IMG/VR virus record: IMGVR_UViG_2718217862_000002
Length of the DNA: 31,258 bases
Reading direction: 5' to 3' (one strand)
Origin: a virus
Taxonomy: Duplodnaviria; Heunggongvirae; Uroviricota; Caudoviricetes
Below, piece after piece: positions 7,985-31,258 of this stretch. Made by a program: the position numbers and the translations under genes. The notes beneath the pieces were generated by a model. That model did no database searches. It worked only from the letters and a program-made list of their open reading frames with translations, and was not told the origin of the DNA. Numbering within the stretch: the first letter of the stretch is position 1; each line of letters opens with the position of its first letter.

Positions 7985-8011
7985 GATGGATCCCCTGAAT
8001 AAAAACCGGGG

Positions 8012-8521
8012 ATGATGCCAGTTAGCCGTAATCTCTGCATTTTCTTAAACGTTGGTTTGGGAGAAACGATAAATAAAGCCTCCGGAGCTATGCAGAAATC
8101 GGCTAATGGAGCTGATATTTCTGATGTATCAGCCTTCCGAAATGCGCTCCAGTTAGGGACCGCCGCAACACGAGATGTTGGAGCAGATAATGCCTCGAAG
8201 TTACTGGATTTAGACAGCTTCAGGTCAATGATGTCAGGGAATGGCTACATCTACATTCCATGCATTGCGACGACAGGAAACCCGGTGAAACTTATGTTGC
8301 AGTGGGGAACGGTGGCAACACAAAAGGGAGCTGATGCTGGATATGCCTTACCATTTGCTTTTCCCTATGCAGGCTTATTTGCGACCGGAAACCGTGGAAC
8401 ATCTGGCTACAATGCCGCGATGAATGTGCGTATTGCCAGCAGAACGCATATCAGTATTCAGAACTGGTCGCCATCCGGAGAGGGCACCGAAGATTGTTGT
8501 TTTATCGCGCTGGGGTATTAA
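8012..8521 (+). CDS. Alternate tail-fibre C-terminal (receptor-binding, Sv'-like) cassette lacking an N-terminal constant region; probably not expressed as a fibre in this orientation
   Basis: C-terminal part is homologous to the C-terminus of H on the opposite strand (shared GY.Y.P ... LQWG ... ALG[IY]-stop); followed by a tfa gene; begins at the hix-like site. Confidence 0.55.
   Translation: MMPVSRNLCIFLNVGLGETINKASGAMQKSANGADISDVSAFRNALQLGTAATRDVGADNASKLLDLDSFRSMMSGNGYIYIPCIATTGNPVKLMLQWGTVATQKGADAGYALPFAFPYAGLFATGNRGTSGYNAAMNVRIASRTHISIQNWSPSGEGTEDCCFIALGY
8042..8065. promoter_or_regulatory. hix/gix-like recombination-site remnant (TTCTTAAACGTTGGTTTGGGAGAA)
   Basis: Resembles the Hin/Gin crossover consensus (TTCTTGAAAACC..GGTTTTTGATAA-like half-sites) but with a shortened centre; sits exactly where the alternate fibre cassette begins, next to the invertase remnant. 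Confidence 0.35.
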
Positions 8522-8523
8522 GA

Positions 8524-8934
8524 ATGAATAAATTTTATAAAGGCTCTTTCTATCCGAAAGCACTAAAAGAGGTATATATCAGCGCCGGTTCATGGCCTGA
8601 AAATGGCGTTGATGTTGATGATGAAACAATGGCAATTTACACAGGCGTAGCGCCACAAGGCAAAACGCTGGGGGCTGATAAAAATGGTAATCCTGCGTGG
8701 ATTGATATCCCGCCACTCTCCGCTGAACAACAGATTATTCAGGCTGAACAGAAAAGAACGGTATTGCGTTCTATGGCTGATAAGGAAATAGTCTGGAGAC
8801 AGGATGCTTTTGATGCGGAAATCGCGACGGCAGAAGAAACCGCCGCGTTATCTGAATGGAAAAAATACCGGGTGCTGCTGATGCGCGTTGATACCTCAAA
8901 AGCCCCCGATATTCTGTGGCCTCCGCAACCGTAA
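8524..8934 (+). CDS. Tail-fibre assembly protein (Tfa / P2 gpG family), 136 aa
   Basis: C-terminus EWKKYRVLLMRVDTSKAPDILWPPQP matches the conserved Tfa C-terminal motif (lambda Tfa / P2 G type, WRQYRVLLNRVDTSTAPD.WP); ATG at 8524 three nt after the cassette stop. Confidence 0.7.
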   Translation: MNKFYKGSFYPKALKEVYISAGSWPENGVDVDDETMAIYTGVAPQGKTLGADKNGNPAWIDIPPLSAEQQIIQAEQKRTVLRSMADKEIVWRQDAFDAEIATAEETAALSEWKKYRVLLMRVDTSKAPDILWPPQP

Positions 8935-8961
8935 CAAAAAGCCGCTGTTTGCGGCTTTCTC

Positions 8962-10074
8962 TTATATCCCCAGCGCAAGATAGGTGTAGCTGTCAATATT
9001 GTTTGCCGTACCGTTTCCACTCCAGCCATAGAGACTAAACCCGGTCTGCGTGTAATTAACAGATGTTACATACCGATGGTCAGCTGTGATTTTATGCGGA
9101 AGAACGATAAATGGGGTGACATTAAACGGTTTTTTAAAGCTTACCGTAGCATTGGTCGCCTGAACCGAGCCGTGCCCCCATTGCAGCAGCAATCCTCCCG
9201 GTAATTCAAAGTACCCATCAGCCTCCAGTAACCGTTCTCCAAATCCAAGGTATGCGAGAAGACCAGCTACATCCTTTCCACTCAAATGAGTCAGCGTCTC
9301 ATCCAGTGGCTGCTTACCTGACAGCGCATTGTTAATGGTGGTACTGAATTTCGGGTCATTGTTAATGGCTGCGGCAATTTCTTTCAGTGTGTCCAGCGTG
9401 GCTGGCGCACCGTTAATCAGAGCGGTAATAGCGGCCTGAACAAACGCAGTGGTCGCAATCCGCGTGGTGTTATTTCCTGCGGCAGGCGTCGGCGCTTTTG
9501 GTTCTCCGGTAAATGTCGGATTATGTTTCTGCGCATACTGGGTATGAGGATCCTGTGCGGCAATGTGGTTTCTCATCTGGTCATCCACATACAGCCTTAA
9601 TTCCAGGACTTCATCATCCACGTATTTACGGGTCGCCAGTACCACCGACGGGTCGATTTTCAGCGTGATAGCTTCGGTATTCGTGACAACCAGAATCATG
9701 CGGATAGTCTGGGTACGACCACTGCCTTCCTGCAACTGCGGTTTGTACGTTTCCGGGCAGTTCGCCACCGCAATGAGTACGCCTTCATCATCATAAAGCC
9801 CAATCTCACGGATCCAGAATCCGCCCTCGTTCTCAGGGATGATTTGCTCCGCAATAATCTGGCTCTGGTTGTTCGGGTCAACACTCAGAAGATTCAGCGG
9901 CGCGATGCGTTTCTGGTTAATCAGTTTTGTCTGTGCCGGGTCTGGTGTCGGCAAGACACCATTCGCATCACCAACGGCCATTTGCGTCAGATTCAGCTTA
10001 CTGCCGAGCATCGTCGCGTTAGCCAGCCGTGCTGCGCCCTGATTAGTCAGAATGGCGTAGTATTTCACTGTCAT
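8962..10074 (-). CDS. H: Tail fibre protein gpH, 370 aa (P2 H-like N-terminus, divergent shorter C-terminal region)
   Basis: N-terminus MTVKYYAILTNQGAARLANATMLGSKLNLTQMAVGDANG...GGFWIREIGLYDDEGVLIAVANCPETYKP recognisably P2 H-like; position between I and the tail-fibre accessory region. Confidence 0.85.
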   Translation of the reverse strand: MTVKYYAILTNQGAARLANATMLGSKLNLTQMAVGDANGVLPTPDPAQTKLINQKRIAPLNLLSVDPNNQSQIIAEQIIPENEGGFWIREIGLYDDEGVLIAVANCPETYKPQLQEGSGRTQTIRMILVVTNTEAITLKIDPSVVLATRKYVDDEVLELRLYVDDQMRNHIAAQDPHTQYAQKHNPTFTGEPKAPTPAAGNNTTRIATTAFVQAAITALINGAPATLDTLKEIAAAINNDPKFSTTINNALSGKQPLDETLTHLSGKDVAGLLAYLGFGERLLEADGYFELPGGLLLQWGHGSVQATNATVSFKKPFNVTPFIVLPHKITADHRYVTSVNYTQTGFSLYGWSGNGTANNIDSYTYLALGI

Positions 10075-19007: not shown

Positions 19008-20780
19008 ATGACCATCACCACAGACACCACTCTTTTACACGACCCGCGTCGTCAGGCGGCGCTGCTGTACTGGCAGGGGTTTTCCGTGCCGCAGATTGCC
19101 GCCATGTTGCAGATGAAACGCCCGACGGTGCAGAGCTGGAAACAGCGCGACGGCTGGGACAGCGTTGCTCCCATCAGCCGTGTCGAAATGAGTCTGGAAG
19201 CGCGGCTGACCCAGCTCATCATCAAACCGCAGAAAACCGGCGGTGACTTCAAGGAAATTGATCTGCTGGGACGCCAGATTGAACGACTGGCACGGGTAAA
19301 CCGCTACAACCAGACCGGCAACGAGGCAGACCTTAATCCGAACATCGCTAACCGCAACAAAGGCGGGCGACGCAAACCGAAAAAGAATTTTTTCAGCGAC
19401 GAGGCTATCGAAAAGCTGGAGCAGATTTTCTTTGAGCAGTCTTTCGAATATCAGTTGCACTGGTATCGCGCCGGGCTTGAGCACCGCATCCGCGATATCC
19501 TGAAATCCCGCCAGATTGGCGCGACGTTTTATTTTTCCCGCGAGGCGCTGCTGCGCGCCCTGAAAACCGGTCATAACCAGATTTTTCTGTCGGCCAGTAA
19601 AACGCAGGCGTATGTGTTCCGCGAATACATCATCGCCTTTGCCCGTCTGGTTGACGTTGACCTGACCGGTGACCCGATTGTCCTGGGCAATAACGGCGCA
19701 AAACTGATTTTTCTCGGCACCAACTCCAACACCGCACAGAGCCATAACGGCGACCTGTACGTCGACGAGATTTTCTGGATCCCGAATTTTCAGGTACTGC
19801 GTAAGGTGGCATCAGGTATGGCCTCACAGAGTCACCTGCGTTCGACCTATTTCTCCACCCCGTCCACGCTGGCGCACGACGCCTACCCGTTCTGGTCAGG
19901 TGAACTGTTCAACCGGGGACGCGCCAGCGCCGCCGAACGCGTGGAAATCGACGTCAGTCATAACGCCCTTGCCGGTGGGCTTCTCTGTGCGGACGGCCAG
20001 TGGCGGCAGATTGTCACCATTGAGGACGCCCTGAAAGGTGGCTGCACGCTGTTCGACATTGAGCAGCTCAAACGTGAAAACAGCGCCGACGATTTTAAAA
20101 ACCTGTTCATGTGTGAATTTGTTGACGACAAGGCGCCGGTGTTCCCGTTCGAGGAGCTGCAACGCTGCATGGTCGACACGCTGGAAGAATGGGAAGACTA
20201 TGCGCCGTTTGCCGCGAATCCGTTCGGCTCCCGCCCGGTATGGATTGGTTACGACCCGTCACACCGTGGCGACAGCGCCGGATGCGTGGTGCTGGCACCG
20301 CCGGTGGTGGCCGGTGGCAAATTCAGAATACTTGAGCGTCACCAGTGGAAAGGCATGGACTTTGCCACTCAGGCGGAATCCATCCGCAAACTCACCGAAA
20401 AATACAACGTCGAATACATCGGTATTGATGCCACCGGCCTCGGTGTCGGCGTGTTCCAGCTCGTGCGCTCGTTCTATCCCGCCGCGCGCGATATCCGCTA
20501 CACGCCGGAAATGAAAACCGCAATGGTGCTCAAGGCAAAAGACGTTATCCGTCGTGGCTGTCTGGAATATGACGTCAGCGCCACCGACATCACCAGCTCG
20601 TTTATGGCTATCCGCAAGACCATGACCAGCAGCGGACGCAGCGCCACCTATGAGGCCAGCCGCAGCGAGGAAGCCAGCCACGCCGACCTCGCCTGGGCGA
20701 CCATGCACGCCCTGTTAAATGAGCCACTCACCGCCGGTATCAGCACTCCGCTGACATCCACCATTCTGGAGTTTTACTGA
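19008..20780 (+). CDS. P: Terminase large (ATPase) subunit gpP, 590 aa
   Basis: Start at MTITTDTTLLHDPRRQAALLYWQGFSVPQIA (ATG 19008, GAGG six nt upstream); size matches P2 gpP. Confidence 0.9.
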   Translation: MTITTDTTLLHDPRRQAALLYWQGFSVPQIAAMLQMKRPTVQSWKQRDGWDSVAPISRVEMSLEARLTQLIIKPQKTGGDFKEIDLLGRQIERLARVNRYNQTGNEADLNPNIANRNKGGRRKPKKNFFSDEAIEKLEQIFFEQSFEYQLHWYRAGLEHRIRDILKSRQIGATFYFSREALLRALKTGHNQIFLSASKTQAYVFREYIIAFARLVDVDLTGDPIVLGNNGAKLIFLGTNSNTAQSHNGDLYVDEIFWIPNFQVLRKVASGMASQSHLRSTYFSTPSTLAHDAYPFWSGELFNRGRASAAERVEIDVSHNALAGGLLCADGQWRQIVTIEDALKGGCTLFDIEQLKRENSADDFKNLFMCEFVDDKAPVFPFEELQRCMVDTLEEWEDYAPFAANPFGSRPVWIGYDPSHRGDSAGCVVLAPPVVAGGKFRILERHQWKGMDFATQAESIRKLTEKYNVEYIGIDATGLGVGVFQLVRSFYPAARDIRYTPEMKTAMVLKAKDVIRRGCLEYDVSATDITSSFMAIRKTMTSSGRSATYEASRSEEASHADLAWATMHALLNEPLTAGISTPLTSTILEFY

Positions 20781-21814
20781 TGAGCAAGAAAAAAGGGAAA
20801 ACACCGCGACCAGCGGCAAAAAAAATGACCGCCAGCGCTCCGAAAATGGAGGCATTCACCTTTGGCGAGCCGGTGCCGGTACTCGACCGCCGTGACATTC
20901 TGGATTATGTCGAGTGCATCAGTAACGGCAGATGGTATGAGCCACCGGTCAGCTTTACCGGTCTGGCAAAAAGCCTGCGTGCTGCCGTGCATCACAGCTC
21001 CCCGATTTACGTCAAACGCAATATTCTGGCCTCGACATTTATCCCGCATCCGTGGCTTTCCCAGCAGGATTTCAGCCGCTTTGTGCTGGATTTTCTGGTG
21101 TTCGGTAATGCGTTTCTGGAAAAGCGTTACAGCACTACCGGTAAGGTCATCAGACTGGAAACCTCACCGGCAAAATATACCCGCCGTGGCGTGGAAGAGG
21201 ATGTTTACTGGTGGGTGCCGTCCTTCAACGAGCCGACAGCCTTCGCGCCCGGCTCCGTGTTTCACCTGCTGGAGCCGGATATTAATCAGGAGCTGTACGG
21301 CCTGCCGGAATATCTCAGCGCCCTTAACTCTGCCTGGCTGAATGAGTCGGCCACGTTGTTCCGCCGCAAGTATTACGAAAATGGCGCACATGCCGGATAC
21401 ATCATGTACGTCACCGATGCCGTGCAGGATCGCAACGATATCGAAATGCTTCGCGAAAACATGGTCAAGTCGAAAGGCCGCAACAACTTTAAAAACCTGT
21501 TTCTCTATGCCCCACAGGGGAAAGCCGACGGCATTAAAATTATCCCCCTCAGTGAAGTGGCGACGAAGGACGATTTTTTTAATATCAAAAAAGCCAGCGC
21601 CGCTGACCTGCTGGACGCGCACCGCATCCCCTTTCAGTTGATGGGTGGCAAGCCGGAGAACGTCGGGTCGCTGGGTGATATTGAGAAAGTGGCAAAGGTC
21701 TTTGTCCGCAATGAGCTTATCCCGTTACAGGACAGGATCCGCGAGATAAACGGCTGGCTCGGTCAGGAGGTCATCCGCTTTAAAAACTACTCACTGGACA
21801 CTGACAACGACTGA
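20780..21814 (+). CDS. Q: Portal protein gpQ, 344 aa
   Basis: Size identical to P2 gpQ; start overlaps the P stop; last gene before cos. Confidence 0.9.
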   Translation: MSKKKGKTPRPAAKKMTASAPKMEAFTFGEPVPVLDRRDILDYVECISNGRWYEPPVSFTGLAKSLRAAVHHSSPIYVKRNILASTFIPHPWLSQQDFSRFVLDFLVFGNAFLEKRYSTTGKVIRLETSPAKYTRRGVEEDVYWWVPSFNEPTAFAPGSVFHLLEPDINQELYGLPEYLSALNSAWLNESATLFRRKYYENGAHAGYIMYVTDAVQDRNDIEMLRENMVKSKGRNNFKNLFLYAPQGKADGIKIIPLSEVATKDDFFNIKKASAADLLDAHRIPFQLMGGKPENVGSLGDIEKVAKVFVRNELIPLQDRIREINGWLGQEVIRFKNYSLDTDND

Positions 21815-21984: not shown

Positions 21985-22003
21985 GTGCTTTCCCCGCCTC
22001 GCC
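21985..22003. other. P2-type cos cohesive-end sequence (reverse complement of GGCGAGGCGGGGAAAGCAC)
   Basis: Plus strand reads GTGCTTTCCCCGCCTCGCC at 21985..22003, which is the exact reverse complement of the 19-nt P2 cohesive end as I recall it; located just beyond Q as in P2. Confidence 0.6.
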
Positions 22004-22229
22004 CGCCCGCTTCATGGGGCGGTTTTAATGCAGTTGCATGAGTACGTTGGAACCGCACTGGTGCTGACGATACCCAATCAAACCTTGCTGTATAATTACT
22101 TGCGAATTCACGCACATCAACGCGAATCTTACATCATGAATAATTCATTTATGGCTACAGAATGAGTATATTGCATGTTATGAAATAACTTTGTGCTCCT
22201 TCTCGTGGACATGTTCAACGGAGATCCAG

Positions 22230-23351
22230 ATGATTGCTGATTCAGAAATACTTTATGTTCCGCTAGATGATTTGGAACTTGACACAGAAAACCCAAGACT
22301 TCCTGAAGGCGTGTCTCGTGACCAATTGGGAATGATTAACTACATAGCAACCTCAACATCTATCGAAGACCTAATGAGTGCTATTGCGGAAAATGGTTTT
22401 TTCCCTGGAGAACCATTGATTGTCATTCCTGATAGTGGAGCGCCGGGGAAGTACATTGTAGTTGAAGGAAACCGTCGCCTATCCGCGGTCAAATTATTAC
22501 GCGATCCGACACTATGTGAAAATCCAAGTGCTCGACTACGAGAAATTGCATCAAATGCAAAACATACGGTCGATCGTGTTCCTGTCATTGAGCGCCAAAC
22601 AAGAGAAGAGATTCTTCCGTACCTTGGTTTCAGACATATTACTGGTGTCAAACAATGGGAACCCTTATCAAAAGCTCGATATATTAAACAGCTTTTTGAT
22701 TATACCAATGCAAATCTGGATCCAATGCTACGCTACTATGAGGTTGCCAGAGCTATTGGCAGTCGTAGGGATCATATCAAGCGTAACCTAGACGCTTTAG
22801 CGGTGTATGAAATCATTAAAAAAAATGATTTTTATGGTATTGAAAAGCTAGATGAAGAAACGATTAAATTTTCAGTATTATCAACAGCACTTGCTGATGA
22901 GCGGTTAGGCCAGTTTGTCGGAGTTTCAATCGAAGACGATGGAGACACAATACCAAGTCATCCTATCATCAATTCTAAGAGTTTAAAGAACAAAGAAATA
23001 AAAGAACTAACTGAATGGTTATATAAAAAAGGCGAGGATAAAAAAACTCGTGTAGGAGAATCACGTAATTTAAGAGAACTAGCTGCTGTTGTAAGTAGCC
23101 CTAAGGCATTGGAGCAATTCCGAATGGGGGCTCCACTCGCAGTTGCCTATCAATTGACATCTGATATTACTAAGGACTTTCTCCAGTTACTTTATCAAGT
23201 TGAAGCAGCTTTGATAGATGCAGCAGGCATGGTTGCCACGGTAGAGTATGATAGACAGGCCCATGAAGTAGCACGAAGAATCAATAAACATATTAAGCTT
23301 ATAGGTTCTGAAATAGCAGAGAAAAATAGCAGAGGTGATGATGACTTTTGA
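22230..23351 (+). CDS. ParB/Srx-like (ParB N-terminal nuclease/NTPase-fold) domain protein, about 373 aa; cargo gene 1
   Basis: N-terminal region ILYVPLDDLELDTENPRL ... LMSAIAENGFFPGEPLIVIP ... KYIVVEGNRRLSAVKLL follows the ParB-box pattern (NPR motif, then the G-x-R-R arginine motif). ATG at 22230 preceded by GGAG; the ORF-track start at 22191 is a TTG. AT-rich codon usage unlike the phage backbone. Confidence 0.7.
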   Translation: MIADSEILYVPLDDLELDTENPRLPEGVSRDQLGMINYIATSTSIEDLMSAIAENGFFPGEPLIVIPDSGAPGKYIVVEGNRRLSAVKLLRDPTLCENPSARLREIASNAKHTVDRVPVIERQTREEILPYLGFRHITGVKQWEPLSKARYIKQLFDYTNANLDPMLRYYEVARAIGSRRDHIKRNLDALAVYEIIKKNDFYGIEKLDEETIKFSVLSTALADERLGQFVGVSIEDDGDTIPSHPIINSKSLKNKEIKELTEWLYKKGEDKKTRVGESRNLRELAAVVSSPKALEQFRMGAPLAVAYQLTSDITKDFLQLLYQVEAALIDAAGMVATVEYDRQAHEVARRINKHIKLIGSEIAEKNSRGDDDF

Positions 23352-24330
23352 AGTAGGAGTTATGCATCCCAACTCTCCTCATTTGTTTGCAGATTTAGCC
23401 GAGTTACTCACGGTAATTAATTATACCGGACGTAACTCACTACATAAAAATGATTTAGATTCAGTAAGAAAATTCGGCATAACAAGCGTTGAAGAAATTG
23501 ATGAAGAATGTAATTCTGAAGAAGAAATTAATGGAGACGCTGAGAGAAATGATCGTTTTGAAGAGCAACTCGAAGATGTTTGGACACAACTCGAATATAG
23601 AGAAAGTGCTCTTGGCAAAATATATCCATTTATAATTTCAGGTGATGAGATAATTATTAAAGAAAATCTAAACCAACAACAACGAATATATGTTTTTCTT
23701 CTTTGCTGCTCTAGACTTAGATCCTTTAAGTCGATTAAAGGAGCAGCACAACGTTGGGCAAAGAGCTTTGCCAGAGTATGTAAAGTAGCAATGATTTCTC
23801 TCTTACCTGCACATGGCACCGTAAGAATTTTTGATGCTAACTCCGATGATAGGCAAAATTATTATGGAACAAATCTTCGGACAGCTCTACAAACTTTAGG
23901 AAAAGATCTTGGAGTTTGTAGTTTAAACACAAGGGAAATAAATAGAGCTCCCACATCTGGTGATGCCGGGTTTGACCTAATTGCTACAGTGGAATTTCCT
24001 GATGGTCAAACTAGCAACTATGGAATTCTTGGTCAATGTGGTGCACAAGAAACAGGGTGGCCAAGCAAAACATTAGAGGCTAACGTGTTAAAACTGACCA
24101 CCTATTTCCAAATTGCGTTCCAGCATCCATCAACAATGTTCACGCCTGTTTTCTATCGGGAAGCAAATGGCGAATGGGTAAGCACACACGCAACCGCTGG
24201 AGTATTATTATTAGATAGGTTGAGAATCATATATCTACTTGATAAGGCAAACCAATGGGAAGCGATAACTACCTCTGATTGGTTTCGCGAATTTGAGGAA
24301 GAGCTTTATACATTAAATCCAGAGCCTTAA
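23335..24330 (+). CDS. Hypothetical protein, 331 aa, no domain recognised; overlaps gene 1 by 17 nt; cargo gene 2
   Basis: Long ORF in the AT-rich island, start codons (ATGATGATG) overlapping the 3' end of gene 1; acidic stretch EEIDEECNSEEEINGDAERNDRFEEQLED near the N-terminus. Confidence 0.6.
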   Translation: MMMTFEVGVMHPNSPHLFADLAELLTVINYTGRNSLHKNDLDSVRKFGITSVEEIDEECNSEEEINGDAERNDRFEEQLEDVWTQLEYRESALGKIYPFIISGDEIIIKENLNQQQRIYVFLLCCSRLRSFKSIKGAAQRWAKSFARVCKVAMISLLPAHGTVRIFDANSDDRQNYYGTNLRTALQTLGKDLGVCSLNTREINRAPTSGDAGFDLIATVEFPDGQTSNYGILGQCGAQETGWPSKTLEANVLKLTTYFQIAFQHPSTMFTPVFYREANGEWVSTHATAGVLLLDRLRIIYLLDKANQWEAITTSDWFREFEEELYTLNPEP

Positions 24331-24337
24331 TAGCTTA

Positions 24338-25282
24338 TCAATCCCATAATTCTATTGGCAATGCCTTCGTTACAGCTTCAAAAAGCGGCGGAGGCACTGC
24401 ATTACCAACCACCGTGTATTTCATGCCAAGACTTGCAGCATTTGTTTCTGGAAACACTAGATCCTCAAACCCTTGTAATAGTGCAGCCTCTCGAAAACTG
24501 AATCTGCGAGCTCTCCGATCCTCAACAAATCTCCATTCATCAGTTCTTACTTTCTCCATCGGAGGACTGACAGGATGCAACGGCATATGCCTTGCATTAG
24601 CAACTATTGTCTTTGAAATTTGATCCCAATCCTGGCGACGATTGCGAGACATATAATACCAATGGAATCCCATATCATAAAATTCACCTTCTGGCCATTC
24701 AGGTAAATGCCCTATAGCATCTTTAATAGTAACATAGTTGACGCCAGTTGCTGGCCCATGAGTTGGCTGAGGGAACTCGTACTTAACTTTGAAATCATTA
24801 CGGATTCCTACGATAAATATTCTTTTTCTTTCCTGCGCTACTCCATATTCAGCCGCATTTAAAACTTTTGCGGAAACAGTATAACCTGCTTCAGTAAAAA
24901 CCCTGATCTGGTCAGATAACAAATGCTCAAAATTTTTTCTAACCATACCAGACACGTTTTCTACTATAAAAGCTTTAGGCTTTATATTGTTTAAAGCTCT
25001 AGCAAACTCTAAATAAAGAGTATTAATTTTTCGATCGGCTTTACGCGCACCACCCTGGCTGAATCCCTGACATGGATAACAACCTACCAGCAAATCAGAT
25101 TTAGGAAAAGTAGTTACATCAGCAATATTGCCTAATATGTAATCAGTTTCTGGATGATTGGCAATATAAACATCGCGCGCATACGGCAAGATATCGTTGG
25201 CCATAAGCACATCAAAGCCGGCTCTCAAAACCCCCGCATCGGAACCACCGCATCCAGAAAAAAGTGAAACTACTGTTGGCAT
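24338..25282 (-). CDS. DNA (cytosine-5)-methyltransferase, 314 aa; cargo gene 3
   Basis: Canonical m5C MTase motifs in order: FSGCGG (motif I, AdoMet binding), PCQGFS (motif IV, catalytic Cys), ENV (motif VI), QERKR (motif VIII). Convergent with gene 2, stops 8 bp apart. Confidence 0.9.
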   Translation of the reverse strand: MPTVVSLFSGCGGSDAGVLRAGFDVLMANDILPYARDVYIANHPETDYILGNIADVTTFPKSDLLVGCYPCQGFSQGGARKADRKINTLYLEFARALNNIKPKAFIVENVSGMVRKNFEHLLSDQIRVFTEAGYTVSAKVLNAAEYGVAQERKRIFIVGIRNDFKVKYEFPQPTHGPATGVNYVTIKDAIGHLPEWPEGEFYDMGFHWYYMSRNRRQDWDQISKTIVANARHMPLHPVSPPMEKVRTDEWRFVEDRRARRFSFREAALLQGFEDLVFPETNAASLGMKYTVVGNAVPPPLFEAVTKALPIELWD

Positions 25283-25401
25283 TATCCCCTCCTAAAACCG
25301 ACCGCGTATTATAGCGAAAGCCTCCGTATATAGAAGCAGGTTTTGAACAAGATTATGTTCTCACTTTTTAACAACTGTGGCCATAAAAAATTAGCTCAAT
25401 A

Positions 25402-25430
25402 TGAAAAACAGATTAATTCATTGTTTTTCA
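25402..25430. repeat. Perfect 9-bp inverted repeat TGAAAAACA-N11-TGTTTTTCA in the AT-rich spacer between the MTase start and the A stop
   Basis: Read directly from sequence at 25402-25410 and 25422-25430. Confidence 0.5.
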
Positions 25431-25483
25431 TAGAAAAATTCCACAAACACTATAACATTCCCACAACACTGCAGTAGTAGTCA

Positions 25484-27760
25484 TTATTGTTTAATTGAAA
25501 AAACCGACCACTCATTAGCGACCGGATACGTGAATTTTTTCCCGTCATAATTTACGGTTGCCCCACGCGCCAGCGCCTCAAGCTCCCATCGCTGCGGCCT
25601 GATACCGTTCTGAGCAAGGTCAACGCGGATACGGGTAATTTGCATTCGTTCCGACCGGGTCAGTCTGGCCGATGGTGCCATTTCATGCGGTTTTAACGGG
25701 CTTCCGTTTCTTTGCTGGCGATTTGGTGTTCTCAGGCCATGTTTTAATGCACCTCTGAGCGCCCTCACGACCTCCGGGTCATTCCATTCGATGACACCGT
25801 CATCAACCAGATTAAGCACTGCTGCGGCGTGCTCAGAAGGTGTGGGAGCTGGTAACGAAGTATCACCACCGGTGAGCTTTCCACAGTTATTGACAGGACT
25901 CCGAGGCGCGGCGATGCCGCTTTTTAAAGTCAAAGGCTCAACGACCGGAACTTTCGGCACAATGCGCCAGTCCGTCGTTCTGGTGATATGAATATGACGC
26001 GCGCCGAGATGCGGCGCGTAAATGCCGACCACTCTCTCGACTTCTTCCTCGTATTCGTTAACGTCATCCGACGGGCTACGGGCGACCCTGACAGTCTGAC
26101 AATCGCGCGGGACATTTGCCCCGCCCTGCGCGCTGATATACAACGCAAAATCGCCACTGTCTGCGGCGGCGCGTGCAGCCTCCACGCGTTCGTCAAATTC
26201 ATCAGCAATGCTGACGCCGCGAGGCAATTTACGTAGCTCACGGTAAGCTCCCATTGTCGGCAGGCCAACCGTTTTAAATTGCGGGATGCGCCACGTTGAC
26301 GCCCATGCGGTAACAGCCGCCGCAGTATCTTTCAGCGGTCTGCCGGTATCGTTATCGAGCTGACCATCCAGTGCATAGCCGTCGATATTTTTTGAAATGT
26401 ATTTCGCGATATATCCCGCAGCACCGCCCCGGTTAAGGTGTTTTGCCTGAAAACGGTTTCGCGCGGCTCCTCTTTCGTCGCCATCCTCTTTGAGCGCATA
26501 GCGGCGCATGATTTCGATAATCTGGTTACGCTGGCGTGGATTACAAAAAAGCATCATATGCCAGTGCGGCGTTCCGTCGTGGTGTGGCTCGACGACTCGC
26601 AAACCGTAGACCTGTAAATCATTATCCTTGAATGCCGTGCGCATCAGGCTCCAGATACGGCAGAGATAACGCTGCGCATCCTTTGGATTAAATGCCTCAT
26701 CATTCCAGCCGTGATTAAGCTGGACGGTTTTATTTTCGCCTTTTCCAACCTGACGTGTCGGGTGATACTTTGACGGCGCGGTCAGCGTGATAAACATCCC
26801 CACATCACCCTCTGAGGCGGCGTAACGCTCAATACCGGCAATGGTGTTCATCAGCTCCATCCGGCGAATTTCAGGATTAGAAATACTGCCCATCACCTTA
26901 CTGATAAGGTCGATGCGCTCGCCGGTTTCCCTGTTTTCAAGATCACACGATTTAAGAAATTCCAGATTTGCCTGGCGGCGCGCACGCACATCACGAATGG
27001 CATGTTTACTGGCATAAGGTGAACGGTCTTTATTGACCTCCCCGACAGCTATCAGTAACGCCTCATGCCAGCGCATACGCTGGCCTTTAAGCTGATGAGT
27101 CCACCACTCATCGTTAAACAGACGGGCAATGGCAGAATATGCCTGCCTCGTGGTCATCTGCCCTTTACGGTATTTGTTCCAGTAGAGAGGGGAAATATTG
27201 AAAGCACGTGCAGCGCCAGCAACATGACCATAGAGGTGAGCCTGCGCCTCATCCGTAAACAGCGATTCTTTTTCGCCATGTGCATCCACCCAGGCATCGC
27301 TGAGTTCCTCATACATCATGAAAAGCTGCGATGAGATACGGGCAGCAAACTTTTTCAGCTCCTTGTCATTCATTCCCGGCAGGCGCGCATAGTGGTCACG
27401 CTCTGCCAGAAACAGTAACGACGCGTCGGTGTTCATTTCATGGCGCTGATTCACACGCTCAATGCGCGGCCATAAACGACGCTGAAAAGTGGATGTGAGG
27501 AAATAAAACCCGTGCACCGGGCTTTTATTGCGCCGGATGTAGTCATAGCGTGAAGTAAACAGCGAGCGCAAAAAGTAAGGCAGGCGGTTAATCGTGGATA
27601 AAACACCTTGCACCTGACGCATCTCGTCACGTGTAAGAGGTCTTTCGCGCCCGACAGCCTCGCGTGGCGCGTTCCATGCATAAGCACCGGTAAACGCCTT
27701 ACCGGTGCCTGCGGCAAATGCTGACGGAGGGACAAAACGCCCGGAGGCTTTAACGGCCAT
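25484..27760 (-). CDS. A: Replication initiation protein gpA (rolling-circle endonuclease), about 758 aa
   Basis: Size and position match P2 gpA; first ATG at 27760 (MAVKASGRF...); the ORF-track start at 27802 is a TTG that would overlap orf83 by about 50 nt. Confidence 0.85.
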   Translation of the reverse strand: MAVKASGRFVPPSAFAAGTGKAFTGAYAWNAPREAVGRERPLTRDEMRQVQGVLSTINRLPYFLRSLFTSRYDYIRRNKSPVHGFYFLTSTFQRRLWPRIERVNQRHEMNTDASLLFLAERDHYARLPGMNDKELKKFAARISSQLFMMYEELSDAWVDAHGEKESLFTDEAQAHLYGHVAGAARAFNISPLYWNKYRKGQMTTRQAYSAIARLFNDEWWTHQLKGQRMRWHEALLIAVGEVNKDRSPYASKHAIRDVRARRQANLEFLKSCDLENRETGERIDLISKVMGSISNPEIRRMELMNTIAGIERYAASEGDVGMFITLTAPSKYHPTRQVGKGENKTVQLNHGWNDEAFNPKDAQRYLCRIWSLMRTAFKDNDLQVYGLRVVEPHHDGTPHWHMMLFCNPRQRNQIIEIMRRYALKEDGDERGAARNRFQAKHLNRGGAAGYIAKYISKNIDGYALDGQLDNDTGRPLKDTAAAVTAWASTWRIPQFKTVGLPTMGAYRELRKLPRGVSIADEFDERVEAARAAADSGDFALYISAQGGANVPRDCQTVRVARSPSDDVNEYEEEVERVVGIYAPHLGARHIHITRTTDWRIVPKVPVVEPLTLKSGIAAPRSPVNNCGKLTGGDTSLPAPTPSEHAAAVLNLVDDGVIEWNDPEVVRALRGALKHGLRTPNRQQRNGSPLKPHEMAPSARLTRSERMQITRIRVDLAQNGIRPQRWELEALARGATVNYDGKKFTYPVANEWSVFSIKQ

Positions 27761-28025
27761 ATGAGCCAAAAGCCTCAGAACAACGCTTGCTGAGTTGCTC
27801 AACCTGCGCGTTTAAATCAGCAAAAGACTTTGCGCTTCCGGTCAGAATATCGTGATGCATCAGGCCGGAAACGAGCTGGCTTAATTTCGGGTAATAACCA
27901 ACCACCGCCAGCCATTCCTGACCGGCGTTTTTACCGCTTTCCGCTCTCTTTTTCTCGTGGAGAATAAACTGAAAGCTGTCACTGGTAACGACATAACGTT
28001 CGCCAATTTCAATACGAATACTCAT
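27750..28025 (-). CDS. Hypothetical protein (P2 orf83 position), 91 aa
   Basis: Synteny within the early operon between orf82 and A; start overlaps the orf82 stop. Confidence 0.55.
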   Translation of the reverse strand: MSIRIEIGERYVVTSDSFQFILHEKKRAESGKNAGQEWLAVVGYYPKLSQLVSGLMHHDILTGSAKSFADLNAQVEQLSKRCSEAFGSYGR

Positions 28026-28246
28026 GCCGTTCTCCGGTAATGTTTGTTTTTTGCTTCAAAGACTGACTGACAGGAAACACAACGCGTGGCTGACGGGTAA
28101 GCCGCACGACGGGCAGCAGGTATTGGCGCGTCACACTCTTCGCAAACCAGCGCAGAAGCACCGCAATGTTTTACCCTTGCCGCGTTAATCTGGCGCTCCA
28201 GTAATTCAGCCTGTTGTTCCTGAATAAAATCTACGTTGTCCGGCAT
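28022..28246 (-). CDS. DksA/TraR-family C4-type zinc-finger protein (P2 orf82 position), 74 aa
   Basis: Four Cys in CEECDAPIP ... CVSC arrangement typical of TraR/DksA C4 zinc fingers; synteny. Confidence 0.7.
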   Translation of the reverse strand: MPDNVDFIQEQQAELLERQINAARVKHCGASALVCEECDAPIPAARRAAYPSATRCVSCQSVFEAKNKHYRRTA

Positions 28247-28248
28247 TA

Positions 28249-28551
28249 TCAGCTCCTTTTATCGTTAAGTTGCCTGGATACATCAGCGCAATAACTGGCA
28301 AGTTCTGTCGTTAATTTTGTCAGTTCATCCACTGAGGAAATTTGCTTGTGGAATACAGCGCGTTTAACAAGTAAATTGACCACATCAGACAGGAGGTTTA
28401 ATTCATTCTGATAAATCGCGATAACAGATTCAGTTATGTCGCGTTTTTCTTTATCAAGGCAAAGTTGAATAAGAGACAAATCGCCATTTTTCATAACGGC
28501 GATTTTTAAGGCGTTATTCAGTAATACAACTGAATGAGAACAGGACATCAA
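28249..28551 (-). CDS. Hypothetical protein (P2 orf81 position), 100 aa
   Basis: Synteny; start overlaps the orf80 stop. Confidence 0.5.
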
Positions 28552-28772
28552 AGCACCTCCCCGCGAGACAATCCGATATTGTGAAATTTTTCCGACTCCT
28601 GACTGAGCAGCTCGACTATCTCCACGCGGGATAACTCCGCCTTTGTGATATGGCGAATCATGGCGTCAAGATGAGAAGAAAAGCGTGTCGCTGCGTCGGC
28701 CTGTGCTTCGGCTCTGGCCTGTTGCAGCAGTAATGCGTATTTACCGCACTTGTTTTCAGAAACTGTATGCAT
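28548..28772 (-). CDS. Hypothetical protein (P2 orf80 position), 74 aa
   Basis: Synteny in the early operon. Confidence 0.5.
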
Positions 28773-28835
28773 GACTTTCTCCAGGCAAAAAGAAGCCCCG
28801 CACGATTAAGTGCGTTAAAAACTCTGGTTAATTAT

Positions 28836-29336
28836 TTAATGCAGATATTGCTCTGGTTTTACCGACGTCAGAATTGTCGGTGCATACTCAAACAGGCTGA
28901 ATAATTCACGTAATGCACGGAATAAAGCATCACGCCAGTAACATGATTCTTCATTAATTCGCCAGTATGGCTGGTTGAATTCTTTTTCAGTCAATCCGGC
29001 ATGCATAAATAAAGTACGACGCTGACTGACTGTTAAAAAACTAATATATGCATACTCACTTGCGCCAACCTGACGGCGTTTTGAGAATGCCCCACGCAAT
29101 TCATCAATTGCACAAACCAGCCGTTCACGTTCGACGTCGTTCATTTCTTCAAAACGCATCGTTGCGTGACGCTGTTTTAACTGCGCATGGAAGCAAACCG
29201 TTAGCCGTTCGCGTTCCATCATCTGATTATAATAATCACATGTATCCTGCCAGCGAGGGACGGCAAGATGCTTGCCAATTATCCGGCGCATAGCTGCTGG
29301 CTGTTTTTCAACGAGATTGAGCGTCATCACTGTCAT
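28836..29336 (-). CDS. B: Replication protein gpB (helicase loader-like), 166 aa
   Basis: Size identical to P2 gpB; position between cox/orf78 and orf80. Confidence 0.85.
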   Translation of the reverse strand: MTVMTLNLVEKQPAAMRRIIGKHLAVPRWQDTCDYYNQMMERERLTVCFHAQLKQRHATMRFEEMNDVERERLVCAIDELRGAFSKRRQVGASEYAYISFLTVSQRRTLFMHAGLTEKEFNQPYWRINEESCYWRDALFRALRELFSLFEYAPTILTSVKPEQYLH

Positions 29337-29503
29337 TTCCAGACCCTCCGGCTTTTCAGAAAGGTCAGAGCCTTTTTTAACGGACTCTGTTTTTTGGTGC
29401 GGATAATGATTCCCTTGCGTCCCTTCCCGTGGGTGATGGTGAAGTCAATCGCCCTGTGGCTTTCGTTACGCAGTAACTGAGCAATACAACGCGGCTCATT
29501 CAT
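29333..29503 (-). CDS. Small hypothetical protein (P2 orf78 position); start uncertain
   Basis: Short ORF between cox and B; internal ATG (MNEPRC...) chosen to avoid overlap with cox; weak evidence. Confidence 0.35.
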   Translation of the reverse strand: MNEPRCIAQLLRNESHRAIDFTITHGKGRKGIIIRTKKQSPLKKALTFLKSRRVWK

Positions 29504-29505
29504 AA

Positions 29506-29778
29506 TCACAACCCCATCCACAAAAGCCATGCATCACGCTGTTCAACCGGTCGGTTATAAAACGCCTCACGTACAGCGCGATTAAACTCAGGAATGAAAA
29601 CCCATTTTTCACCGGCACGAGCCTTCGGTTTGCAAGGATCACGCAATTCAATAATTGGTAATTTATTTGCCTTCACCATTTCACTGACAGCTGTCTTTGG
29701 CTTCCCTAATAAATCAGCAAATTTATCCACATGAACCGCATCAAGCGGATACTGAATCACATAATTTTCAGCGTCCAT
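29506..29778 (-). CDS. cox: Cox (excisionase / early transcription regulator), about 90 aa
   Basis: C-terminal ...PVEQRDAWLLWMGL resembles the P2 Cox C-terminus; first gene of the early operon, divergent from C. Confidence 0.8.
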   Translation of the reverse strand: MDAENYVIQYPLDAVHVDKFADLLGKPKTAVSEMVKANKLPIIELRDPCKPKARAGEKWVFIPEFNRAVREAFYNRPVEQRDAWLLWMGL

Positions 29779-29855
29779 ATATGGTACCCTCATAGGATCC
29801 AGCCCTTTCTAAACCACTCAAAACCGTTTAGACGCTGGTTTATTCTCAAATCAAT

Positions 29856-29903
29856 GGAACCTATATAGGTTCCAGTTTTGAGGGAATTTAGTCCCTATAT
29901 AGG
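29856..29903. promoter_or_regulatory. Immunity-switch operator/promoter region: perfect 18-bp palindrome GGAACCTATATAGGTTCC (29856-29873) and second CCTATATAGG copy (29894-29903)
   Basis: Two copies of CCTATATAGG, 34 bp centre-to-centre, in the 136-bp cox-C intergenic region where Pe/Pc and repressor operators lie in P2-like phages; each contains a TATA-rich -10-like hexamer. Confidence 0.45.
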
Positions 29904-29914
29904 CACCATGTCAA

Positions 29915-30208
29915 ATGAAATTAAGCGAAAAGATTAAGGCCTTGCGTGAGGCGGAAGGGCTAAGCCAATCAAAATTCTGTGAAATCATAGAGTTACCGCT
30001 AAGCACACTTAAAAAATATGAAGGAGGAAACTTTGAACCCGGTGGCACAGCTTTGCTAAAAATCACTATGCATCCCACATTCCAAAAATATGCTCTATGG
30101 CTTATGACAGATAAAACCGCGCCGGACGCAGGACAAATCGCACCGGCTCTCGCGCACATTGGGCCAGAGTCAACAGAGTCCAACCACTCCGCGAAAAGGA
30201 TTGGCTAA
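29915..30208 (+). CDS. C: Immunity repressor C (HTH), 97 aa
   Basis: N-terminal helix-turn-helix region (LSQSKFCEIIELPLSTLKKYE) and C-terminal GQIAPALAHIG resembling P2 C (GQIAPALAHFG); located directly upstream of int. Confidence 0.85.
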   Translation: MKLSEKIKALREAEGLSQSKFCEIIELPLSTLKKYEGGNFEPGGTALLKITMHPTFQKYALWLMTDKTAPDAGQIAPALAHIGPESTESNHSAKRIG

Positions 30209-30277
30209 CTCTATATAAAGATTACATTTTCACCATTTGCTACCAAGATGGTGAATACAGCGCCGGAGGGCTTTCTT

Positions 30278-31258
30278 ATGGCAATTAAGAAGCTCGATGA
30301 TGGTCGCTATGAAGTGGACATTAGACCTCGCGGTCGCGACGGAAAACGCATCCGCAGGAAATTCGAAAGAAAAGCTGAAGCACTAGCATTTGAGCGATAC
30401 ACAATCGCCAATGCCAGTCAGAAAGAATGGGGAGGCCAGCGAGCAGACCGCCGGACTTTGAGTGAGTTGCTGGACATCTGGTGGAAATATCACGGGCAAA
30501 ACCACGAGCATGGAACAAAAGAGTTTAATCATCTACTCAAAACCATCAGCGGCATAGGTGATATACCAGTGAGCAGGATGAGCAAAAGGGCTTTGATGGA
30601 TTATCGTTCCATGCGACTACGTGATGGTATCAGTGCCGCAACGATAAACCGTGACATGTACCGATTATCCGGCATGTTCACAAAATTAATTCAATTGGAT
30701 GAATTTTCCGGGCAACACCCAATTCACGGACTGCCGCCACTGGCGGAGGCCAACCCTGAAATGACGTTCCTGGAAAAAGCAGAAATCGAAAAACTGTTAA
30801 ATGTTTTGGCTGGTGATGACTTACTTGTCGCGCTTTTATGTCTGAGCACTGGAGGAAGATGGACGGAAGTTGCCACGCTAAAACCAGCACAGATTACAAA
30901 TTGCAGGGTTACCTTCCTGAAAACCAAAAACGGTAAAAAGCGAACCGTGCCGATTTCTGAGGAACTGGAGAAAAAAGTTAAAGAGGAGGCCAGCGCCAAA
31001 TTATTCAAAGTTGATTATGAGAAATTTTGCGGGATTTTACGCAGAGTGAAACCTGATATACCACCCAATCAGGCAACCCACATCCTGCGGCATACATTCG
31101 CAAGCCATTTCATGATGAATGGGGGCAATATAATCGCACTGCAACAGATTCTGGGACATGCAAGCATTCAGCAGACGATGGCCTATGCGCACCTTGCGCC
31201 TGACTATCTGCAAAATGCCGTCGCTCTGAATCCACTAAAAGGCGGAGTGACGTTATAA
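30278..31258 (+). CDS. int: Tyrosine integrase, 326 aa
   Basis: MAIKKLDDGRYEVDIRPRGRDGKRIRRKF... recognised as P2 Int-like; C-terminal catalytic region (HILRHTFASHFMMNGGNIIALQQILGHASIQQTMAYAHL) carries the tyrosine-recombinase R/H-x-x-R/Y signature; GGAGGG RBS seven nt upstream of ATG 30278; stop codon is the last triplet of the window. Confidence 0.9.
   Translation: MAIKKLDDGRYEVDIRPRGRDGKRIRRKFERKAEALAFERYTIANASQKEWGGQRADRRTLSELLDIWWKYHGQNHEHGTKEFNHLLKTISGIGDIPVSRMSKRALMDYRSMRLRDGISAATINRDMYRLSGMFTKLIQLDEFSGQHPIHGLPPLAEANPEMTFLEKAEIEKLLNVLAGDDLLVALLCLSTGGRWTEVATLKPAQITNCRVTFLKTKNGKKRTVPISEELEKKVKEEASAKLFKVDYEKFCGILRRVKPDIPPNQATHILRHTFASHFMMNGGNIIALQQILGHASIQQTMAYAHLAPDYLQNAVALNPLKGGVTL

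Follow-up and report, generated by a model that had tools for sequence, protein, structure and literature searches.

What is the function of the three genes that lie between the cos site and replication gene A of this P2-like element, and do they form an anti-phage defence system that can be related to a known one? Within the window (the whole stretch of DNA analysed, 31,258 nt), the island at 22004-25483 contains three intact genes and has a GC content of 39.8%, versus 54.0% in the remainder of the window, so that both the AT-richness judged by eye in the earlier note and the three genes described there were borne out. The conserved left boundary is the portal protein gene (P2 Q-like, 20780-21814, plus strand), recognised by its ORF, by the portal annotation of the identical E. 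coli locus and by a PF04860 match in the Salmonella counterpart. The right boundary is the replication endonuclease gene A (25484-27802, minus strand), an ORF which is so annotated in the identical E. coli locus, where the RefSeq start corresponds to window position 27760, and which has a PF05840 match in the Salmonella counterpart. The island starts directly after the 19 nt cohesive end of the cos site (21985-22003, GTGCTTTCCCCGCCTCGCC), which is the reverse complement of the P2 cos sequence GGCGAGGCGGGGAAAGCAC. Its position matches the cargo hotspot of P2-like prophages described by Rousset 2022 (PMC9122126) and Vassallo 2022 (PMC9519451), in agreement with the earlier placement at P2 tin/old.

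A candidate terminator-like GC hairpin with a T-run (CCGCCCGCTTCATGGGGCGG TTTTAATGCA) was found by consensus scan at the left junction (22003-22032, plus strand), followed by the region 5′ of the gene 1-gene 2 operon (22033-22229, plus strand), which contains a perfect TATAAT at 22091-22096 as candidate promoter, and a GGAG sequence 8 nt before the ATG. The region 5′ of the methyltransferase gene (25283-25483, minus strand) has a GC content of 34.8% with AGGAGG before the ATG, and includes an 18 nt sequence (25294-25311) which recurs at the 3′ end of gene A (25500-25517, repeat family D1). A further terminator-like hairpin was located at 25525-25504 by consensus scan. The promoter scan gave no excess of sites (8 versus 9.1 in shuffles), terminator-like sites in the consensus scan were not enriched over shuffled sequence, the repeat and inverted-repeat search for parS-like or regulatory sites returned only short pairs at chance level, and no tRNA genes were found.

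Gene 3 (24338-25282, minus strand), convergent with gene 2, encodes a complete C5-cytosine DNA methyltransferase of 314 aa, as read earlier from its catalytic motifs: PF00145 (5.5e-65) covers the full length of the protein, TIGR00675 matches with 1.4e-56, and the translation shows motifs I, IV, VI, VIII, IX and X. The nearest solved structure is that of M.HaeIII, with a full-length alignment that includes the target-recognition region (1.4e-48). Gene 1 (22230-23351, plus strand, 373 aa) consists of a ParB/Srx N-terminal domain, a ParB-type DNA-binding domain and a C-terminal helical domain. Its ParB/Srx fold, already proposed in the earlier note, and its helix-turn-helix domain were assigned with confidence, and the GxxRxxA box is intact (E79-G-N-R-R-L-S-A86), while the C-terminal helices gave no match to HEPN or any other fold. 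The gene 1 family comprises 327 clusters at 50% identity (E ≤ 1e-30). An acidic C-terminus ending in DDDF is invariant in 26 close homologues and was considered as an SSB-tail-like docking peptide, an idea that was dropped because the tail is not kept in the wider family (0/139 had a final F among the most frequent endings) and falls in the overlap of genes 1 and 2.

The ORF of gene 2 (23341-24330, plus strand, 329 aa) overlaps the end of gene 1 on the same strand, with either the start at 23341 or an alternative GTG start at 23335. Profile searches of gene 2 against Pfam, NCBIfam, PADLOC and PDB sequences, and of 32 family members against Pfam, gave nothing consistent, and the earlier description of a protein with no recognisable domain thus holds for sequence families. 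It does not hold for the predicted structure, as the search for nuclease folds that had been suggested yielded a winged-helix N-terminal region and a restriction-endonuclease-like C-terminal domain of the PD-(D/E)xK type, with weak matches to NgoMIV and MspJI in a PDB fold search. The canonical (D/E)xK triplet is absent, but acidic, Gln and Lys residues are conserved throughout the family (G207-D208-x-G210-x-D212, Q232-C233, W240, K243 and D292-R293-x-R295). Gene 2 may on the basis of this model encode a PD-(D/E)xK-type nuclease, which would cleave DNA.

Comparison of the locus with its relatives demonstrated that the island is a real, mobile three-gene cassette common to many bacterial phyla, and that its genes stay together as a conserved unit in phyla and mobile elements that are not related to each other. 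Genes 1 and 2 were adjacent and co-oriented in 38/38 distinct related loci that could be scored for both (drawn from L001, L005, L007, L010 and L011-L050, with both gene positions on the contig), and the pair was present in at least seven phyla, including Chloroflexota, Acidobacteriota, Bacteroidota, Desulfobacterota, Campylobacterota and Actinobacteriota. For 28 fully flanked loci (complete gene 1-gene 2 pair flanked by no less than 1.1 kb on either side), a C5 methyltransferase was located within 300 bp of the pair in 21 and at 1-3.3 kb in two more, giving 23/28 within 3.3 kb. Four arrangements were seen, with the methyltransferase either downstream, in convergent or co-directional orientation, or upstream, in co-directional or divergent orientation. 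A linkage that persists through such rearrangement points to function. The other five pairs (L012, L019, L023, L038 and L049), in which the conserved residues are intact, have no methylase within 6 kb, although one may be present elsewhere in those genomes, and they argue against a purely classical restriction-modification (R-M) logic. The cassette is carried by P2-like prophages of E. coli and Salmonella, integrase-flanked islands of Pseudomonas and Pelomonas, a Burkholderia prophage and a Rep_trans element in Methylophilaceae. Within complete E. coli genomes, a close methyltransferase accompanies all close copies of the gene 1-gene 2 pair (48/48), with the methyltransferase subfamily present in 226 genomes and a DNA-detectable pair in 84. 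The methyltransferase is still ~70% identical where gene 2 has fallen to 26-32%, as is usually seen in R-M pairs, whose modification gene is better conserved than the restriction gene.

The island cassette is listed in Table S5 of Rousset 2022 (PMC9122126) as DNA_methylase, hypothetical and ParBc, and the arrangement is therefore already catalogued and belongs to a known theme; it is absent from the table of tested systems in that study. The 'putative plasmid partitioning system' reported there for a quarter of P2-like phages may correspond to the recurrent StbA and Plasmid_stab_B of Table S5, where the cassette has a separate entry. Literature searches by accession and keywords found no study of this cassette.

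The closest named relative is PD-lambda-5 from E. coli ECOR7, for which broad protection against phages was shown experimentally (Vassallo 2022, PMC9519451). The first ~200-280 residues of gene 1 are homologous to its component A (best PADLOC match 6.2e-29, with at least 25 PD-Lambda-5_A models matching), in an alignment which spans only model positions 7-277 of 440, and comparison with PD-lambda-5A of phage AS1 gave an hhalign probability of 98.7%, with the DxxNPRLP and VVEGNRR motifs common to both. This homology to a component of a protective system counts for an R-M-like defence reading. The two systems are alike in the N-terminal ParB/Srx domain plus central domain of component A and gene 1, in being paired with a DNA methyltransferase, and in being small cargo modules of mobile elements, phage-derived or otherwise, with the PD-lambda-5 locus adjoining an integrase gene in phages AS1 and ValB1MD-2. 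However, PD-lambda-5 consists of two genes and the cassette of three conserved genes, with gene 2 always beside gene 1, and the PD-lambda-5 A protein is ~440-500 aa long and has a HEPN-like region at its C-terminus (PD-Lambda-5_A model positions 250-502 are matched by the second ORF of ValB1MD-2), whereas gene 1 lacks that effector region. Component B is a D12-class N6-adenine methylase (MethyltransfD12) and gene 3 a C5-cytosine enzyme; the methylases of AS1 and ValB1MD-2 matched the PD-Lambda-5_B models with 1e-103 to 1e-118, whereas these models were absent from the best 25 matches of gene 3. Gene 2 as a detached C-terminus of PD-lambda-5A was ruled out, as it shows no relationship to that protein (hhalign 0.4%, no PADLOC match). 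The earlier view that the module fits no named system still stands, as the other defining features of PD-lambda-5 are missing, but through gene 1 the cassette does have a named relative. Most likely, the cassette is an R-M-like defence cassette that represents a variant related to PD-lambda-5.

PD-lambda-5 was itself read by Vassallo 2022 (PMC9519451) as a compacted system combining restriction-modification and abortive infection, with stronger protection against T-even phages, the DNA of which resists most classical restriction. Transferred to the cassette, this reading would make the ParB-like protein and the nuclease a latent toxic effector, which would respond to a signal of infection (for example a phage protein, replication intermediates or a loss of methylation capacity) with no scanning for unmethylated sites, and the methylase would limit self-damage or be the monitored component. 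It gains from the methylase-less pairs with intact residues, which show that the pair can exist with no methyltransferase beside it, and of which some lie amid other defence genes (GmrSD and Mrr at L049, a type I S subunit at L012, Uma2 and HipA at L038). However, the predicted effector has a DNase-type fold rather than the HEPN-like region of PD-lambda-5A, self-marking is the simplest explanation for a tight linkage to a single methyltransferase subfamily that outlasts rearrangement, and the trigger is purely hypothetical, which together make such a guard system rather unlikely.

The cassette also resembles type II R-M systems, with which it shares convergent nuclease and methylase genes with few bases between the stop codons, a full-length M.HaeIII-type C5 methylase and, by prediction, a REase-like nuclease fold as in NgoMIV/BsaWI-type endonucleases. 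It differs from these systems in its obligatory third component with a ParB fold, in the missing canonical triplet and in the pairs that lack a methylase. M.HaeIII-type methylation is itself subject to restriction in E. coli K-12, and PD-lambda-5 required a Δmrr host. The mth-orf96-orf98 genes of phage Wphi (NC_005056), a family which also occurs in other Peduoviridae, occupy the same hotspot in the same convergent order, and are a distant member of the cassette family. They are highly diverged, and their annotation gives no more than the product names gp96, gp98 and DNA cytosine methylase. Identity is 34% between gp98 and gene 1 and 25% between gp96 and gene 2, and a methyltransferase ~71% identical at the DNA level is present in the genome of E. 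coli W, the Wphi host strain, which served for this comparison in place of Wphi mth. A literature search found no functional study of these genes. A resemblance to Druantia type II is confined to gene 3, which scores on the PADLOC model DruM2|DruM (378 bits, 1.1e-113) as well as on MTase_II, but DruE, DruF and DruG are absent from the 3.5 kb three-gene island, which is too small to hold them, and neither gene 1 nor gene 2 matched a Druantia model.

The earlier note had left the choice between an R-M-like and a modification-dependent module. The former is supported by the REase-like fold of gene 2 and the three-gene linkage, and the latter is disfavoured since the linkage to a methyltransferase is conserved. 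In its fullest form, the modification-dependent alternative holds that a ParB-like NTPase and nuclease, comparable to GmrSD and BrxU, attack modified phage DNA as a type IV-like enzyme, with the methyltransferase being an independent phage gene that shields the P2-like genome from host restriction; we regard this as very improbable. GmrSD combines DUF262 (GmrSD_N) with a DUF1524 HNH domain and has no cognate methylase, whereas the cassette has no PF03235 or PF07510 matches, its partner protein is REase-like instead of HNH, and a methyltransferase is linked. The modification-sensing ParB-like NTPase nucleases DndI, SspE and GmrSD/BrxU are among the closest known systems.

ParB partition and CTPase proteins share the ParB/Srx fold, GxxRxxA box and helix-turn-helix domain with gene 1, but the three-gene island lacks both a ParA ATPase and a family of repeated or palindromic parS-like sites, and a partition function for gene 1 was rejected on these grounds. 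The wider proposal that the cassette is not primarily anti-phage, and instead acts in maintenance, either by post-segregational killing of the R-M type or by ParB-like maintenance of an extrachromosomal phage state with an anti-restriction methylase, is for the same reasons improbable, even though gene 1 homologues are named 'chromosome partitioning protein ParB' in databases and R-M systems can act as addiction modules. Addiction and defence are compatible with each other. The identical cassette is present in Yersinia phage HQ103, which persists in a plasmid-like form in Y. pestis at 21°C, which speaks for maintenance, but this carrier state was attributed to H-NS and a defective repressor (PMC10321612), and the cassette is mostly found in integrated elements, always with its nuclease-like partner.

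On balance, we consider it somewhat probable that the island is a self-contained, horizontally mobile R-M-like cassette against phages, which a P2-like prophage carries as cargo in its hotspot near cos, and which would function as follows. The C5 methyltransferase would mark and thus protect host and prophage DNA at a short site, possibly GGCC-like; the window contains 116 GGCC sites versus 150 ± 9.5 expected, a mild depletion which is not attributable to the gene 3 methylase and was given no weight. Gene 1, a ParB/Srx-fold protein predicted to bind nucleotide and DNA, may be the sensor or licensing subunit, which would recognise whether DNA is modified and release self DNA that bears the mark, as the analogy with the ParB-like NTPases DndI and SspE suggests. 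The precedent of DndI, which senses DNA modification and releases self DNA (PMC11662687), counts for such a role. On unmarked incoming DNA, gene 1 would work with the putative nuclease of gene 2, translated from the same overlapping operon, and the DNA would be cut. The cassette may have evolved as a relative of PD-lambda-5, itself a ParB/HEPN protein with a Dam-like methylase, in which the sensor module was retained, the fused C-terminal effector gave way to a DNase-type protein of its own gene, and a cytosine methylase took the place of the adenine methylase.

A bolder reading, which is possible though doubtful, is that the cassette represents an undescribed, widespread class of restriction enzymes, in which a ParB-type nucleotide switch, possibly using CTP, replaces the ATP/GTP motors of type I, type III and McrBC enzymes. 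The ParB-like subunit would load on DNA, read m5C as the self mark and license the separate winged-helix and REase subunit to cut DNA that lacks the mark. PD-lambda-5 and the cassette would then belong to one ParB-sensor superfamily as two variants that differ in the effector, with a fused HEPN in the former and a separate DNase in the latter.

With the present PADLOC models, this island would be reported only as an orphan PD-Lambda-5_A and a methylase, and such loci are therefore probably under-counted in defence surveys. If defence is confirmed, a compact (3.3 kb) and widespread family spanning at least seven phyla would join the modification-based immune systems, and a function would be given to two protein families which are now called 'hypothetical' or, misleadingly, chromosome partitioning proteins. 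The E. coli P2-like prophage and the infectious phage HQ103 would then provide a simple genetic system for the coupling of a ParB/Srx switch to a nuclease and a DNA mark, a question of effector and mark coupling which equally concerns PD-lambda-5.

The sequence between positions 22004 and 25483 has a GC content of 39.8%, compared with 54.0% in the rest of the window and 55.7% and 50.4% in its immediate flanks, which confirmed the AT-rich island proposed in the earlier note, at the location given there. The island starts directly 3′ of a 19 nt sequence at 21985–22003, the reverse complement of GGCGAGGCGGGGAAAGCAC, which we take to be the P2 cos site, and its right end coincides with the stop codon of gene A, which encodes the replication endonuclease. 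The predicted three-gene content and convergent layout between these borders were borne out, as the island is occupied by three ORFs: gene 1 (22230–23351, + strand), gene 2 (+ strand, 23341–24330 from the RefSeq ATG start at 23341, with an alternative GTG start at 23335), and a C5-cytosine methyltransferase (gene 3, 24338–25282, − strand) convergent with gene 2. Genes 1 and 2 overlap by 11 nt, with a GAGG sequence 6 nt upstream of the gene 2 start, and the stop codons of gene 2 and the methyltransferase are 7 nt apart. An 18 nt direct repeat, located just upstream of the methyltransferase start (25294–25311, AAAACCGACCGCGTATTA) and in a terminator-like hairpin at the 3′ end of gene A (25500–25517, AAAACCGACCACTCATTA), may be a recombination scar at the right junction of the cargo. 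Stretches with lower GC than the late-gene backbone are also found at 8001–9000 (0.46–0.48) and 28001–31000 (0.42–0.48), the latter covering the right end of the prophage with its early/regulatory genes and integrase. The window is a P2-like prophage, with Yersinia phage HQ103 being 96.8% identical across the aligned 86% of the first 25 kb, and is also close to other Peduovirus genomes.

The methyltransferase gave a full-length match to PF00145 (5.5e-65), and its translation contains motifs I, IV (PCQ), VI (ENV), VIII, IX and X, in agreement with its earlier description as a complete m5C methyltransferase with intact catalytic motifs, as predicted from sequence. The closest solved structure is M.HaeIII (GGCC), and because the alignment is end-to-end and includes the target-recognition region, a GGCC-like specificity may be taken as a lead, nothing more. 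The whole window contains 116 GGCC sites versus 150 ± 9.5 expected from dinucleotide-preserving shuffles, a mild depletion that could not be linked to this methylase; counts were equal to or higher than that of the window in all 100 shuffles. The PADLOC model of DruM (Druantia type II) also gave the methyltransferase a score of 378 bits, far above those of the generic type II methylase models, with no other Druantia genes present beside it, and one methylase subfamily may be common to several defence architectures.

Searches with gene 2, alone or as a 32-member family, gave no sequence matches in Pfam, NCBIfam, PADLOC or PDB sequences, consistent with the lack of a recognisable sequence domain reported earlier. 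Its structure model is confident (pLDDT 85.7, pTM 0.87) and consists of two parts, and the fold matches, with modest scores, suggest a winged-helix/REase protein with a newly recognised nuclease fold. The residues G207-D208-x-G210-x-D212, Q232-C233, W240, K243 and D292-R293-x-R295 were kept in 29 family members, down to ~25% identity, and are compatible with a variant PD-(D/E)xK site, but do not form the canonical triplet; MspJI likewise uses Q-x-K. The gene 2 family comprises 273 clusters of ~330 aa proteins, which are 50–60% identical across Gamma- and Betaproteobacteria.

The three genes behave as one unit. Context look-ups showed a shared layout, in which a ~372 aa gene overlaps a ~330 aa gene and a C5 methylase faces them in convergent orientation. 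This layout adjoins an integrase in Pseudomonas nitroreducens, and is located in a prophage in Burkholderia vietnamiensis, on a small Rep_trans element with an inserted HNH gene in a Methylophilaceae genome, and in the Q/A hotspot of Salmonella P2-like prophages. A species-level scan (one genome per species) detected 40 loci, as far as Chloroflexota, Acidobacteriota, Bacteroidota, Desulfobacterota, Campylobacterota and Actinobacteriota, and genes 1 and 2 were neighbours in each of the 38 distinct loci whose contig covers both positions. Twenty-eight complete pairs had 1.1 kb or more of sequence on each side; a C5 methyltransferase was found within 300 bp in 21 of them, in four different orders/orientations, at 1–3.3 kb in two, and was absent in five. 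The methyltransferase is still ~70% identical where gene 2 is down to 26–32% identity. The pair was detected by DNA similarity in 84 complete E. coli genomes (48 near-identical, 36 at ~64%), with a near-identical methylase accompanying every near-identical pair, while the methyltransferase subfamily is present in 226, including E. coli W. Some cassettes have extra genes separating gene 2 from the C5 methylase (locus-internal positions 7165–7929 in L003 and 3165–4097 in L004, both from Methylophilaceae, and 6948–10061 in L041 from Pelomonas parva), with one insert encoding an HNH_2 protein and another a 1037 aa protein with an N6_Mtase domain, which suggests that the cassette accretes further nuclease or methylase modules.

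The gene 1 family (E <= 1e-30) contains 327 clusters at 50% identity, nearly all of 355–385 aa. PADLOC identified gene 1 as PD-Lambda-5_A (6.2e-29), with the alignment limited to model positions 7–277 of 440. PD-lambda-5 is a two-gene 'ParB/HEPN, methyltransferase' system from ECOR7, with a D12-class adenine methylase as B component (Vassallo 2022, PMC9519451). We compared the cassette with the bona fide PD-lambda-5 loci of Marinobacter phage AS1 and Vibrio phage ValB1MD-2. The gene 1 family aligned with the first ~200 residues of the AS1 A protein (98.7% alignment probability), and the gene 2 family showed no relation to that protein (0.4%). The PD-Lambda-5_B models recognised the AS1 and ValB1MD-2 methylases at 1e-103 to 1e-118, but are unsuited to gene 3, which belongs to another methyltransferase class. 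The two systems thus have the sensor module in common, whereas the effector of the cassette is different and separately encoded, and its modification enzyme is different. The cassette departs from PD-lambda-5 on three of the four testable points of membership, and therefore should not be filed as that system. In ValB1MD-2 (L054, 2947–4499) the A homologue is split into two overlapping ORFs of 252 aa (model positions 4–238) and 265 aa (250–502), followed by the PD-Lambda-5_B methylase, which represents either a frameshift or a natural sensor/effector split; the latter would be analogous to the two-protein organisation seen in the window.

The same arrangement was listed at least 98 times among P2 hotspot loci as 'DNA_methylase + hypothetical + ParBc', with the same RefSeq entries (WP_001143636, WP_000142509 and WP_000559725), in Table S5 of Rousset 2022, but is absent from the table of tested systems in that study. 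Literature searches found no functional study of the cassette. Phage HQ103 carries the identical three-gene cassette, the phages vB_EcoM-12474II-V a version of 58–61% identity, and phage Wphi a distant version, mth-orf96-orf98. The HQ103 record annotates two unknown genes only, leaving unannotated an intact 314 aa methyltransferase ORF (L053 3185–4129, NC_070908.1 about 28684–29628). This phage is reported to persist in Y. pestis at 21°C in a carrier state, as a plasmid-like element, in a paper that mentions neither the ParB-like gene nor the methylase (PMC10321612). The hotspot of Yersinia phage L-413C lacks gene 2 and the methyltransferase, and contains a truncated gene 1 homologue (L052 4031–5023, NC_004745.1 29530–30522; 62% identity, query residues 9–303) that looks like a decayed cassette remnant.

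Folds, motifs, homology and linkage were shown by this analysis, and a restriction-modification-like defence cassette is their best-supported reading, with type IV-like and maintenance/addiction readings less likely. The methylase would mark self DNA, the ParB-like protein would bind DNA and tell marked from unmarked by a nucleotide-dependent switch, and the winged-helix/REase protein, translationally coupled to it, would cut unmarked DNA; we infer these roles of methylation, nucleotide use and cleavage, as well as the target site and phenotype. Mechanistically, DndI offers the nearest precedent: in this ParB-like NTPase-nuclease, the phosphorothioate mark stimulates the ATPase, so that the enzyme lets go of self DNA and restricts phage DNA that lacks the modification (PMC11662687). 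The main difficulty for the restriction-modification-like reading is posed by the five loci without adjacent methylase, where the conserved residues of the pair are kept. Either these loci have their methylase at a distance, or the pair is not lethal in itself; the second case would speak for an Abi/guard-type mechanism, which has been suggested for PD-lambda-5. Methylase-free pairs were found in the company of other defence genes: between an upstream GmrSD and a downstream Mrr-type endonuclease in Candidatus Thiovulum (L049, 3176–7739), after a type I specificity subunit and AAA ATPase in Methylococcaceae (L012, 1388–4332), and with Uma2 and a HipA-like kinase downstream in L038 (6942–8689). 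In E. coli GF47 (L057 3163–3860, NZ_CP172169.1), as in GF54, the ~64% variant has an IS1 element within its gene 1 homologue and an intact gene 2 and methyltransferase, and loss of the ParB-like gene is therefore tolerated in the presence of the nuclease-like gene and the methylase.

The earlier reading was right in outline. Rather than a system of a categorically new kind, the cassette is P2 hotspot cargo that was already catalogued but is uncharacterised, and it represents a new architectural variant on the PD-lambda-5 theme of ParB sensor plus methylase. It is a good target for experiments in view of its breadth across phyla, the nuclease fold newly recognised in gene 2, and the availability of an infectious phage and of numerous E. 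coli lysogens that carry it.
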